NCBI GenBank assembly: GCA_016839805.1 | Contig: JAEOTO010000032.1 | Span: 160,001 to 224,000, forward strand | Reading direction: 5' to 3' | DNA from: Candidatus Hermodarchaeota archaeon | GTDB lineage: Archaea > Asgardarchaeota > Hermodarchaeia > Hermodarchaeales > Hermodarchaeaceae | DNA: 64,000 bases | Shown: one piece after another, positions 5,381 to 55,393 of the stretch | How the letters are laid out: every line of letters starts with the position of its first letter | Numbering within the stretch: the stretch's first letter is position 1 | Position numbers and translations under genes: made by a program | Notes under the pieces: generated by a model | Databases searched by the model: none | The model's input: the letters and a program-made list of their open reading frames with translations, nothing else | What the model was told of the DNA's origin: nothing

Positions 5381-5496
5381 GCGGGGGTACCCGAGCACGG
5401 TCTAAGGAATTTATTGAATAGATTCCGATTAAAGGGGCAGGACTGAGGCTCCTGTGGTGTAGACCTTCGTGGGTTCGAATCCCACCCCCCGCACCA
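5381..5496 (+). tRNA. tRNA-Leu(GAG) with a 28-nt D-loop BHB intron (5405-5432)
   Basis: GCGGGGG/CCCCCGC-A-CCA acceptor, CAGGA-CTGAGGC-TCCTG anticodon arm, long variable arm, GTTCGAATC; BHB GGTC-TAA...GATT-AAA. Confidence 0.93.
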
Positions 5497-18569: not shown

Positions 18570-20252
18570 ATGAAGAAAAATGCAACAATACTTCTGATAA
18601 TGGCCATTCTGCTACCTCTGATATGTACTCCATTTTTGAATATAGTAGTCACTCAGGATTGCTTTGTTCAAATTGTTTCAGTTAGTCTAAATCAAACATC
18701 TCTTCAAATTGGAGAAAAACTTGAGGTTAATCTCGTCTATGATTTATATTTTGACCCTTTAGACCCTCTAGGAATAGGATCAGTTAGTGTCACAATAGGA
18801 ATTCAAGGGGTAAGCATTCCTCTGATACAATCAGAATTTACCGATGTTGGAATCGCCATAAATAAAGTAGTTATTTTAGATATCTCTCCAATAACGTGGG
18901 CGCCTAATGAAACCGGACAGGTTGGAAGAGTTCAAGTAGAGGGGTGGGTGCAAGATTCCGTTGGATCGATGACTGATAATGTAGAACAGCAATTCAGCGT
19001 TCAGCAGAGTAATCTCATCTGTGCGATGGCATCAATACCATCTCAAATTTCCTTTCATGATGTTTTCAACCTAACCGGATCTCTGCAAAACCCGAATAAT
19101 ACTTCGCTACCAATTCCCAATCATCCTCTCCAAATATCGGTATTACAGAATGACCAATTAATTCATTCTTGGAATCAAACCACTATACACCCATCTAATT
19201 TTTCACAAACTATCAATACAACACTCATCGGTACTGGACCTTTCAATTGTAATGTAACTGCATCGGAAAGCGATGATTATATCCCAACTGGTACACTCCT
19301 TTCATTCACAATACTAAAGGCAAATATAACGCTCTCAGTCACAACGAATGCTACTGTGGTTCAAGCCTATTACCCTTCAACAAATAACCATTCTCTATTC
19401 GTTTCCGTTCATCTCAACTGCCAATCAGCTAACCATAGTTTTGAAGAGGCTAATGTAACCTGTAGTTTAAGAAATGTTGACACAACAATGGACTATTCTG
19501 ATCTAAACCACTTTTCTACAGTGATAGAAGCCCCCTCTAACCCGGGTAACTATTCTATAACAATTACAGCTCTTACACCCAATCACAATACCATTAATAC
19601 TTCAGTACCCATCCGTGTAGTATCTCGTGATCCCCTAGTCTACTTAGAATCTAATAGATCAGCGGCAGCATATGATGATATTATAGAATTAACAGTAAAC
19701 GTTCTTGATGAAAACTCACAAGAACCAGTAGCGAACAAGACATGCTCTATTTATCTCTTTAATCAATCAGTTTGGAACTTACTAACACAACTAATCCTAG
19801 ATCAGGAAGGAACAGCAAAAATTTCGTGGCTCGCTCAAAACGTCGGTGACCAAGATTTCAGATTCAAAGCCGTCTTTCACGGTGAACCTGAATTTACAAC
19901 CAAAGAAACTGAACTGACCATTACAAATACACGTGAATTCCGGATAATACTAAAATCTACCATTGACATAATTAGACAGACAAACATCTTTTACCTAATA
20001 CAAATTACTGACAAGGATCACCAGCCTTTAACTAACGTTAATTTCACATTAATTGAACAAGCTACAAATTCATCATGGTCTACAGCCTTATCTAACACAT
20101 CCGGCTATGCCACCTTAACATGGTATCTAGCAAGCGACTACGCACTTGGACCCCATGAATTTTCTCTCTTGATTCAAAATGGTTCAATTACACTTGGTGT
20201 AATAGAAGTCATTATGATAGTCTTTGAGCAAACCAAATTAGATTTGGTTTAA
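18570..20252 (+). CDS. Secreted beta-rich (Ig-like repeat) surface protein
   Basis: Signal peptide, many N-x-S/T sequons, repeated T/LxxxGxAxxxW segments. Confidence 0.65.
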   Translation: MKKNATILLIMAILLPLICTPFLNIVVTQDCFVQIVSVSLNQTSLQIGEKLEVNLVYDLYFDPLDPLGIGSVSVTIGIQGVSIPLIQSEFTDVGIAINKVVILDISPITWAPNETGQVGRVQVEGWVQDSVGSMTDNVEQQFSVQQSNLICAMASIPSQISFHDVFNLTGSLQNPNNTSLPIPNHPLQISVLQNDQLIHSWNQTTIHPSNFSQTINTTLIGTGPFNCNVTASESDDYIPTGTLLSFTILKANITLSVTTNATVVQAYYPSTNNHSLFVSVHLNCQSANHSFEEANVTCSLRNVDTTMDYSDLNHFSTVIEAPSNPGNYSITITALTPNHNTINTSVPIRVVSRDPLVYLESNRSAAAYDDIIELTVNVLDENSQEPVANKTCSIYLFNQSVWNLLTQLILDQEGTAKISWLAQNVGDQDFRFKAVFHGEPEFTTKETELTITNTREFRIILKSTIDIIRQTNIFYLIQITDKDHQPLTNVNFTLIEQATNSSWSTALSNTSGYATLTWYLASDYALGPHEFSLLIQNGSITLGVIEVIMIVFEQTKLDLV

Positions 20253-20371
20253 TCTAAAATCAATGGGAAGAACAGTATCAGTGAAATTAGGGAAAATCAG
20301 AAGTATTTTTTAAATTATAAACTAACAACCAACCAGGTCTGATTAGGATTGAATTACTGGAGCCACCATTA

Positions 20372-22475
20372 TTGACCAAAAATCAACGCTTCGAAGAATT
20401 ATCTCGACTCATGAAGAATCCTGATAATATTCGTAATATTGGAATCATTGCGCACATAGATCATGGAAAAACTACTCTCACTGACTCATTACTTGCGAAC
20501 GCCGGAATGCTCTCATCAAATCTTGTAGGCCAAGCTAGGGCATTAGATTTCTTGGAAGAAGAGCAACGAAGGGGAAACGTCTTAGCGGTAACTCGCAGAT
20601 GCCCCAATAACCATAAAATCAGCTAACATCTCTCTTCTCCATGATTACCAAGGAAGACAGTACGTAGTTAATCTAGTAGATACTCCTGGTCACGTTGACT
20701 TTAGTGGTAAAGTTACTCGGGCCATGCGCGCTATTGACGGTGCAATTGTTGTTGTAGATGCCGTAGAGGGTGTGATGGCGCAAACAGAAAGTGTGATTAG
20801 ATCAGCAATTCGAGAGGCAGTAAAACCCGTTTTATTCATTAACAAGATAGATCGCCTCATCCGTGAATTGAAACTTTCAGCGAATCAAGTACAAGAAAGA
20901 TTCATAAAAATAATCCAAGATGTAAACACCTTCATTTCGGCTTTCTTAGAAGTCTATGATGATTCAGATTGGTCTGTTAGCCCAGATGACAATACTGTAG
21001 CTTTTGGTTCAGCACTTCACCGATGGGCATTTACGGTAAAACAAATGCAACAGGCGGATCTTCAGTTTCAAAACATCATCGAGTATTATCAAAATCAGAC
21101 AATTGAAGATTTAAGCAAAAAACTTCCCATACACAAACCAATCCTGAATATGATACTCGAGCAGCTTCCATCTCCAAAGAAGGCACAACCATACCGTACT
21201 AATCGGATTTGGAGAGGTGAATCGGAATCGCCTGCGGGATTAGCGCTTCAGCAATGTGATCCGGACAATTCTCTAATCATAGGAATAACCAAAATTATTA
21301 CAAAATCAAAACATGGTATAGTCGCAGTAGGTCGGCTTTTTTCAGGGACTATCCGAAGAGGATCTCAAATCAGAATCTTTCCAAATGACACACTTTACAG
21401 AACTCAACGTGTTACACTTTTTATGGGGTCTCGACAAGTAGTTGTACCTTCCTTAACTGCAGGCAACATTTGTGGGATAACAGGCATTGAAAATCCGCAA
21501 GCTGGAGATACTATTACTGGACAAAATGTCCCTCGAGGGATGGTACCCTTTGAGGAAATAACATATATCAACGAGCCCGTTGTAACCATTGCAGTAGAAC
21601 CGAAACGCCCGAGAGAACTTCCTCGATTACTTTCGTTTCTTGAAATCGTAACCAAAGCTGACCCAAATCTAATATCTTCTGTTAATGAACAAACTGGAGA
21701 GAATTTACTTTCTGGTCTAGGACTTTTGCATTTAGAGATTGCATTAAAAGATATTGAAGAATTAGGAGTTCAAGTTGAAGCATCAGATCCAATCGTGCTT
21801 TACCGTGAGACTCCAAAAACTAACGTCACACTGCATGAATGGCACCTAAGCCCGAATGGGGAAAATGCTATTAAATTATCAATACACCCAAGGTCTATTA
21901 AACCAGTACAAGTCGATGTCTGGCAGCAAGATCCAAAGGGTAATGCTCTTCTGAATCTATCCCCTGTATTAGTACCTGAATCAGCAAAAAAATCAATTAT
22001 TTCGGGATTTCACTGGGCCATGGAAAGGGGACCTCTTTGTGCTGAACCTGTAGGCCAAACACTCATTAGAATCCTGAACCTCAAGCTCAGCGAAAATATT
22101 ACTTATCGAGGAAAGGTTGAGCTTATGTCAATGGTAAAAGAGGCAATTTTCGCAGCTTTTGAAACTGCAGAAATGACTCTGCTAGAACCCATCTACTCAG
22201 TTCAAGTAACAATTCCCTCTGAATATCTTAAAGAAGTGACAGGAGCGATATCCTCAAGAAGAGGACAAATAGAAAATGTTGAACAAAAAGTTTCATTGAT
22301 TTCAGTTTCAGGAATTTTGCCAGTCAGTGAGTCATTTGATTTAGCCGATGATTTTCGATCAAAAACATCAGGAAAAGCGATTTGGCAAACCAGATTTGCC
22401 CGGTGGAAGATTGTGCCTGACCAAAGAGTAGGGCCAATAATAACTAGTATAAGGAAAAGAAGGGGATTAGCTTGA
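20372..22475 (+). CDS. fusA: Elongation factor 2 homologue (aEF-2 paralog-like), two exons 20372-20576 and 20608-22475, about 690 aa when spliced
   Basis: [16 protein letters not shown], then EEEQRRG|ITIKSAN restored by removing 31 nt, then [26 protein letters not shown]. Confidence 0.9.
20577..20607 (+). other. Putative BHB-type mRNA intron (31 nt) in EF-2
   Basis: GGGG-AA^A-CGTCT...AGATG-CCCC-AA^T; cutting after the second nt of each 3-nt bulge gives in-frame AGG GGA ATA ACC ATA (R-G-I-T-I). Confidence 0.85.
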
Positions 22476-55273: not shown

Positions 55274-55393
55274 TGGTAGCGGGGGGTTGATTTGAACAAC
55301 CGATCTCGGGGTTTCCCAAGGGGATTTATGAGCCCCGCGGGATATCAGGTCTCGGTGAGGAACACCAAGATATCCTGGCTACCCCACCCCGCT
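55274..55393 (-). tRNA. Initiator tRNA-Met(CAT) with two introns (D-loop 55344-55371; anticodon 55313-55326)
   Basis: A1-U72 AGCGGGG acceptor, GGGG/CCCC anticodon stem, BHB CAGG-ATA...CCTG-ATA and CTCA-TAA...TGGG-AAA. Confidence 0.92.

Follow-up and report, generated by a model that had tools for sequence, protein, structure and literature searches.

Splicing of archaeal coding sequences by the tRNA-splicing endonuclease EndA rests, in the literature that we searched, on a single gene, cbf5 (PMC2738675, PMC7714728). The cbf5 pre-mRNA of Crenarchaeota (Desulfurococcales and Sulfolobales) carries an intron with a relaxed bulge-helix-bulge (BHB) motif, cut between bulge bases 2 and 3 by a hetero-oligomeric EndA (PMC2738675), and a study of 2020, according to which cbf5 had been the sole additional BHB intron on record, adds an intron in the 5' untranslated region (5'-UTR) of Haloferax volcanii HVO_1309 (PMC7714728). 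Here we analyse an EF-2 paralog gene, aEF-2p, that is interrupted by an insert of 31 nt in a metagenome-assembled genome (MAG) of a Hermodarchaeia (Asgard) archaeon. The gene is located in a stretch of 64,000 nucleotides, hereafter the window (positions 160,001 to 224,000 of contig JAEOTO010000032.1, assembly GCA_016839805.1), to which coordinates refer unless a contig or locus is named. The segment 20577-20607 is very probably an EndA-type, relaxed-BHB (HBh') intron within the aEF-2p coding sequence, which would be cut by EndA and joined by the ligase RtcB.

In tRNA genes, introns with relaxed HBh' or bulge-helix-loop (BHL) motifs are cut by EndA of the (alpha-beta)2 or epsilon2 type endowed with a specificity loop (PMC3241643, PMC5829648). 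Non-canonical introns are abundant in the tRNA genes of Asgard archaea (PMC11291895; bioRxiv 10.64898/2026.10.13.758758), and mRNA introns are not mentioned in either of these two papers. No report of an endonuclease-type intron in EF-2 or in a protein gene of Asgard archaea came up in the literature searched, subscription journals lying outside its scope, and cbf5, which a preliminary description of this locus had named as the established BHB intron of an archaeal protein gene, was the only published coding-sequence precedent found (PMC2738675, PMC7714728).

The interrupted gene and the structure of its insert

The open reading frame (ORF) 20372..20626 would give, from unspliced RNA, a product of 84 aa that begins at a TTG codon, contains the GTPase P-loop and reaches ...EEEQRRG, to continue with 16 out-of-frame residues up to a stop. 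The EF-2 sequence resumes in a different frame as ITIKSAN... and stays open to the stop at 22475 (the sequence of 20560-20620 is GAAGAAGAGCAACGAAGGGGAAACGTCTTAGCGGTAACTCGCAGATGCCCCAATAACCATAAAATC). An in silico deletion of 31 nt starting at 20575, 20576 or 20577 yields ...EEEQRRGITIKSAN..., the three starts being equivalent because AA is repeated at both borders. The two halves (20372-20576 and 20608-22475) cover positions 5-67 and 69-720 of TIGR00490, the profile for aEF-2, so that the only profile residue between them is that of the split Ile codon and nothing else is missing; likewise, the Pfam GTP_EFTU match covers profile positions 2-54 in exon 1 and 56-186 in exon 2. The frame of exon 2 is closed within the intron by a TAA (20589-91), and the first possible start after it, with GTG and TTG also considered, is the ATG at 20724; the 38 codons between TAA and ATG, which include DTPGH, are 88-99% conserved. 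Since no start codon precedes this conserved ITIKSAN...DTPGH stretch, exon 2 must be expressed joined to exon 1.

The encoded protein is assignable to aEF-2p, as it has the architecture and G motifs of EF-2 without the HxDxxHRG diphthamide loop: in the alignment of domain IV, the HEDPVHRG of canonical aEF-2 is replaced by NITYRG or ..AERG. Its summed TIGR00490 score is below the cut-off. The closest named relative is archaeon isolate H03M_Hermod_104 (90% protein identity), and the class of the host in GTDB comprises 19 genomes in two genera. Congeners of the host possess a second, uninterrupted EF-2 (open frame of ca. 802 aa, 36-38% identity), which was not found in the host MAG (86.7% complete), where only one EF-2-family gene was found.

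The minimum free energy (MFE) fold of 20555-20625 pairs GGGG (20571-74) with CCCC (20602-05), leaves AAA (20575-77) as a 3-nt bulge followed by an inner stem of 5 bp and an apical stem of 4 bp, and places AAT after the helix, with both flanks (20565-70 and 20609-15) single-stranded. With regard to the strict BHB motif (hBHBh'), the central 4-bp helix and two 3-nt bulges on opposite strands are present, and the outer exon-exon helix h that would close the 3' bulge is absent. As the bases that precede 20571 form no pairs with those that follow 20608, where A or C stands opposite A, for instance, the motif was filed as relaxed. The components of the relaxed motif (HBh'/BHL) are all found, namely helix H, one closed 3-nt bulge, hairpin h' and a second site that is open at the equivalent distance, and in-silico cuts behind base 2 of both bulges restore RGITI and a contiguous aEF-2 profile. 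The insert is a relaxed HBh' form of the BHB motif.

The reading frames and profile matches agree with the preliminary description, in which the EF-2 ORF broke at EEEQRRG and resumed in another frame as ITIKSAN, unspliced RNA gave an 84-aa product, and removal of 20577-20607, by cuts after the second bulge base, restored R-G-I-T-I within what is now seen to be a contiguous aEF-2 profile. The GGGG/CCCC helix, the 3-nt bulges AAA and AAT and the inner stem that it proposed recur in the MFE fold, and the outer helix, which it judged weak and took as the mark of a relaxed BHB/BHL form, does not form. Its probable Asgard host can now be placed in the class Hermodarchaeia, and its view of the gene as an EF-2 paralog is upheld by the loss of the diphthamide histidine.

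Inteins are in-frame protein-splicing domains, and group I and group II introns have a ribozyme core of at least ca. 200 nt. Both possibilities were rejected for an insert that is 31 nt long, out of frame and matched by no Rfam family at E <= 1. A repeat or mobile element was also discarded, since the 38-nt motif occurs only once in the genome.

Conservation and covariation among Hermodarchaeia

An insert at the same codon was found in all 13 Hermodarchaeia species in which the region is assembled, which belong to two genera and share 61-90% protein identity. In each genome of the same genus in which the region is assembled, the distance from the end of exon 1 to the start of exon 2 is 34 nt (intron plus split codon), and in outgroup genomes the two gene halves are contiguous. 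In the alignment of the 13 extracted sequences, one of them from the second genus (alignment A1), 94.0% of the cells are paired, vs 30-45% when the 3' partners are slid by 1-3 columns. Changes on both sides were observed in 8 of the 13 pairs (22 cells), and the covariation score was not reached in any of 500 shuffles. Hairpin h' is paired in 91% of the cells, with both-side changes in seven of its nine pairs, and the four pairs of helix H (columns 26-29/57-60) are formed in every species, although the helix itself appears as GGGG/CCCC, GAGG/CCUC, GGGG/CCCU or GAGG/CCUU. The change of pair 27/59 from GC to AU involves a synonymous change of an exonic Arg codon (AGG to CGA) that is matched by a C to U change in the intron. 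All 13 species have AAA in the 5' bulge, the trinucleotide on the 3' side being AAU in 11 of them and AGU in two, and the apical loop varies freely.

The version of the insert in genome G014 is 30 nt long, in frame, and contains a TGA; for this reason, rescue by frameshifting is excluded and rescue by excision is possible. The exons are under purifying selection (NG86 dN/dS of 0.07-0.15), with 619-621 intact codons in 11 species. Moreover, the insert is crossed, with no indel, by Logan contigs of two further studies (X2 record 1, 20368-20691; X6 record 11, 20538-21500), both carrying a T>C change at 20593 by which a G·U pair in the apical stem becomes G-C. Since independent contigs cross it, the insert did not arise as an artefact in the assembly of the host MAG. 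These results answer three checks put forward in the preliminary description: the insert is present in independent DNA, the rest of the gene is free of pseudogene-like decay, and covarying inserts occur at RG^ITI in the orthologs of 13 species.

Splicing enzymes, related inserts and competing explanations

Two EndA homologs are encoded in the host genome. The first, EndA alpha (186 aa; locus L001, 1474-2034, minus strand), keeps the catalytic Tyr, His and Lys and is nearest to the catalytic alpha subunits of crenarchaeal heterotetramers (3p1z_B of A. pernix, the most similar, 3ajv_B, 2cv8 and 2zyz_B). It aligns without gaps with the A. pernix alpha subunit (APE) through the Crenarchaea-specific loop, its K41 and K43 standing opposite APE K44 and R46; K44 of A. 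pernix is needed to cleave non-canonical and BHL introns (PMC3241643). The second homolog (198 aa; locus L002, 1204-1800) lacks the catalytic His and also matches structural subunits. RtcB is encoded as well (C22:7173-8483), and so the host has, at the gene level, the predicted broad-specificity EndA (alpha-beta, with the specificity-loop lysine) and the RNA ligase that a relaxed BHB would call for. Host tRNA genes contain introns of 24-28 nt with the same geometry at non-canonical positions, such as CAGG-AUA-...-CCUG-AUA in the tRNA-Met gene of the window and GGUC-UAA-...-GAUU-AAA in tRNA-His. In these two genes (55274-55393, minus strand, and 5381-5496, plus strand, respectively) the introns are 28 nt long, lie at about 22/23 and 24/25, and have a 4-bp helix with A-rich 3-nt bulges; ARAGORN assigns them other positions.

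When other genes of the host MAG were examined by the rule used for aEF-2p (a helix of 4 bp, bulges of 3 nt and a cut behind base 2), the total rose to at least six such mini-introns in five protein genes, namely aEF-2p, dnaG, rps30e, actin (two) and cbf5 (Table 1). In cbf5, moreover, the profile halves 3-174 and 168-322 are found ca. 1.6 kb apart in open frames of 836-902 aa (G000:C9:50479-52091, minus strand), which suggests a large in-frame insertion such as an intein. A genome-wide scan for HBh' motifs combined with ORF fusion gave 109,381 candidates and did recover the aEF-2p, dnaG and cbf5 introns, but with no usable excess over controls with shifted cuts: 1,591 matches vs 1,578-1,713 when at least 60 open codons were required on each side, and 46 vs 36-39 for short introns with at least 120 codons. 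The four top fusions in a Pfam test were adjacent complete genes and were rejected. Such a scan cannot count introns without homology information. Directly upstream of aEF-2p, the window contains a 560-aa ORF (18570-20252, plus strand) with a signal-peptide-like N-terminus and many N-x-S/T sequons.

Table 1. Elements of the interrupted aEF-2p gene (window coordinates) and putative mini-introns in other protein genes of the host genome (G000, coordinates by contig)
Feature	Coordinates	Strand	Description and basis
Exon 1, aEF-2p	20372..20576	+	TTG start, P-loop, EEEQRRG and first base of the Ile codon; ORF list, Pfam GTP_EFTU, TIGR00490
Helix H, 5' strand (GGGG)	20571..20574	+	Exonic, Arg-Gly codons; fold and alignment
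5' bulge (AAA)	20575..20577	+	Predicted cut 20576/20577, which restores the frame; invariant in 13 species
31-nt intron (predicted)	20577..20607	+	Inner and apical stems, CCCC of helix H and, of the 3' bulge, bases 1 and 2
Intron hairpin h'	20578..20601	+	Stem 20578-82/20597-601, apical stem 20585-88/20593-96, loop 20589-92
Helix H, 3' strand (CCCC)	20602..20605	+	Intronic; fold and pair count
3' "bulge" (AAT)	20606..20608	+	Predicted cut 20607/20608; no outer helix closes AAT
Exon 2, aEF-2p	20608..22475	+	(I)TIKSAN..., DTPGH motif, domains II-V, stop; Pfam GTP_EFTU, D2, EFG_III, EFG_IV, EFG_C; TIGR00490
dnaG	G000:C22:35401-35435	+	Intron of 28 nt; excision makes DnaG profile 1-30 and 32-419 contiguous
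rps30e	G000:C22:69685-69714	-	30 nt, in frame, two TAG stops; excision gives ...SHGSLT|KAGKVRSQTPK; exon 2 aligns to Ribosomal_S30 8-52
actin	G000:C32:39825-39946	-	Two introns, 28 nt and 30 nt; excision restores the canonical C-terminus
cbf5	G000:C9:52492-52540 (locus L075, 1902-1945)	-	42 nt, in frame, contains TGA; helix CUGG/CCAG, bulges AUA and AAA; joins CBF5 profile 3-40 and 41-174

EF-2-family genes of three other Asgard genera carry introns at three sites, all obeying the rule. In genomes G024 and G034, the sole EF-2-family gene found by these searches is a canonical aEF-2 that retains the diphthamide His. Behind DTPGHV it is interrupted by an intron of 29 nt (ACGU-AGA-...-GCGU-AAA), and cuts made by the rule leave DTPGHVDF. 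In the congener G069 precisely this sequence is found, uninterrupted, and, as the intronless sequence equals the rule-based product, it serves as a natural control for the predicted junction. The paralog of G036 has a 31-nt intron in the P-loop (AUGG-AAA-...-CCAU-AUA), the excision of which restores HGKTTL. The EF-2 paralog of G059 and G066, which belong to another Asgard family, is interrupted by 31 nt at the same RG|ITI codon as in Hermodarchaeia (L058 984-1014; L062 ca. 1460-1500), with bulges AAA and AAU and a central helix of just three standard pairs plus G·A; a quick tree fits both shared ancestry and independent gain of the two introns.

Some further observations were made on the EF-2-family genes of the phylum. 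The presence of the 29-nt intron of G024 and G034, absent from G069, varies inside one Asgard genus (L024 2660-2790, minus strand; L028 1420-1550, plus strand; L064 790-900, minus strand). The EF-2-family open frames of G020 and G031 (L023, L025) are 919-924 aa long and have an in-frame insertion of ca. 520 nt in the P-loop region, which is probably a mini-intein. In G046, no DTPGH stands right before VDF upstream of the VDFTGNVT codons, where a long non-homologous stretch runs to the end of the contig (L063, G046:C414) and could represent either a large intron or an intein, inserted at the position that the 29-nt intron occupies in G024. "Stops inside" flags raised in the phylum survey for G019, G030 and G056 were rejected, since the stops located were natural stop codons; no stop was reported at the G047 and G088 loci.

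The mechanism that we propose for aEF-2p is as follows. In the pre-mRNA, the exonic GGGG of the Arg-Gly codons would pair with the intronic CCCC, so placing the 5' splice site in the AAA bulge between helix H and the intron hairpin and the 3' splice site two bases beyond the helix, in the unclosed AAT. A heterotetramer-type EndA, made up of the catalytic alpha subunit with its crenarchaeal specificity loop and the beta-like subunit, would cut after the second base at both sites (20576/77 and 20607/08). RtcB would then join the exons into ...CGA AGG GGA A|TA ACC ATA..., with the predicted junction CGAAGGGGAA|TAACCATA, also written CGAAGGGGAA|TAACCATAAAATC, to give the switch-I motif RGITI in a GTPase of 690 aa, and the intron would be released, probably as a circle. 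In the preliminary description, splicing was further envisaged as a possible gate on the expression of the paralog.

Several points weigh against this interpretation. A search of sequencing runs for 20300-21500 listed no RNA run, and it is from sequence that we infer cleavage, ligation and a circular intron in the cell. All the genomes compared are metagenome-assembled. For the sequence taken singly, the fold energy does not reach significance (z = -1.45), and the structural support comes from the 13-species comparison. Finally, lacking an outer helix, the RNA would not be a substrate of the strict hBHBh' type, and its cleavage would hang on the broad specificity predicted for EndA. A scan of metagenome contigs with a degenerate pattern of the joined exons gave one match, to an intronless EF-2 paralog of 40% identity, which is uninformative on splicing at this locus.

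The explanation that survives best among the rivals, improbable as it is, is that the RNA is excised by a nuclease and ligase other than EndA and RtcB, or that the insert is a regulatory structure and the halves are made as separate polypeptides that assemble. A conserved structure by itself names no enzyme, and the motif has no outer helix; yet the cuts that restore the protein fall exactly at the positions of the EndA rule in the ten inserts tested, the matching enzyme set (EndA subunits and RtcB) is encoded in the genome, and the TAA at 20589-91, together with the conserved codons that no start precedes, makes a separate exon-2 protein unlikely.

Translational bypassing, which we consider slightly less probable still, would involve no RNA processing: as in T4 gene 60 or the mitochondrial "byp" elements, the ribosome would take off at the Gly codon GGA, skip the 31-nt hairpin and resume at ATA. 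It is true that the Ile codon ATA is intact at 20607-09, so that a hop of 31 nt gives the same protein, that the skipped stretch is a compact hairpin, and that GTA is present at both insert borders in G024 and G034. However, no landing codon matches GGA at the take-off site, ATA being preceded by CCA. In G024 a hop from GTA to GTA would produce HVNF, whereas the intronless G069 has the HVDF that the endonuclease rule predicts, and in G036, dnaG and rps30e the restored codon is built from bases on both sides of the insert, which is impossible by a hop. In addition, what is conserved is the endonuclease motif with its helix of 4 bp and its 3-nt bulges, and this geometry recurs in tRNA genes, where no translation takes place.

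The last rival is a pseudogene in decay, or else an artefact of assembly or sequencing. In its favour it could be argued that automated annotation labels a gene with a frame-breaking insert as a pseudogene and that the only EF-2-family gene found in this incomplete MAG scores below the aEF-2 cut-off. It can be counted as already refuted by the presence of the insert in 13 species and in the contigs that two further studies provided, by the intact exons with their low dN/dS and by the compensatory evolution of the insert, the low score reflecting paralogy rather than decay in view of the uninterrupted EF-2 of the congeners.

Given at least six such mini-introns in one genome, it is probable that these archaea, which are relatives of eukaryotes, use protein enzymes for the splicing of several mRNAs. 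The introns may sit in the G1, G2 and G3 motifs and in signature sequences because half of helix H is exonic and is most easily kept where a conserved motif fixes the bases, the alternative being a detection bias toward conserved regions. A bolder scenario, which we hold only tentatively, places the aEF-2p intron among a genome-wide set of mini-introns in obligatorily spliced Asgard mRNAs, which would be handled by routine protein-only endonuclease/ligase splicing in the nearest prokaryotic relatives of eukaryotes and would be gained recurrently at codons of the most conserved motifs by a site-directed process; under this scenario, the G1, G2 and G3 motifs of EF-2-family genes and the shared RG|ITI codon in two Asgard families would be cases of recurrent gain. 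The process could be a reversed EndA/RtcB reaction with subsequent reverse transcription, or else selection against RNA-guided nucleases directed at the intronless sequence.

Comparison with known systems

To a type of splicing that rests, in the literature consulted, on cbf5, the aEF-2p case adds a predicted mechanism for a translational GTPase. It is conserved throughout a class, and covariation ties the choice of codons to the structure of the intron. Annotation pipelines will label such genes as pseudogenes or miss them, thus distorting estimates of gene content and completeness for Asgard MAGs. Should it be true at the transcript level, Asgard archaea would be evidence that protein genes were interrupted, and their mRNAs obligatorily spliced, on the archaeal side of eukaryogenesis, by means of an enzyme family that eukaryotes have kept as TSEN. 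The system is tractable with recombinant EndA and short transcripts.

The protein itself resembles the aEF-2p described in Asgard archaea and Korarchaeota (PMC6143161), which keeps G1-G5 without conservation of the domain IV diphthamide loop and accompanies a second EF-2, as it does in the Hermodarchaeia congeners. It differs in that no interrupted gene is mentioned in that paper, where "intron" occurs once and "frameshift" and "pseudogene" not at all. With the 5'-UTR intron of HVO_1309 (PMC7714728) it would share the processing of an mRNA by the splicing endonuclease; that intron, however, lies in an untranslated leader and no reading frame hinges on its excision, whereas the coding frame of aEF-2p does depend on excision. 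The likeness to relaxed tRNA introns extends to the geometry, the size class (24-32 nt) and the predicted enzyme, with its loop lysine conserved. The substrate, in contrast, is an mRNA without a tRNA body, and since codons form the exonic half of its helix, maintenance of the helix is coupled to synonymous sites.

The closest counterpart is the crenarchaeal cbf5 intron (PMC2738675), also a short intron in a coding sequence with a relaxed BHB, in which cuts between bulge bases 2 and 3 match the exon borders, the internal sequence varies between species, and the EndA is hetero-oligomeric and of broad specificity, as predicted here. The cbf5 intron is backed by cDNA evidence and that of aEF-2p is predicted from DNA sequence. 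They differ further in that the gene concerned here is a translational GTPase paralog of an Asgard lineage, one of five protein genes with at least six such introns, cbf5 among them, and in that EF-2-family introns occur at three sites in other Asgard genera. The aEF-2p insert thus appears to be an endonuclease-type coding-sequence intron of a known kind, the interest of which lies in its class-wide occurrence, in the covariation between exon and intron, and in its belonging to a multi-gene set in an Asgard archaeon.

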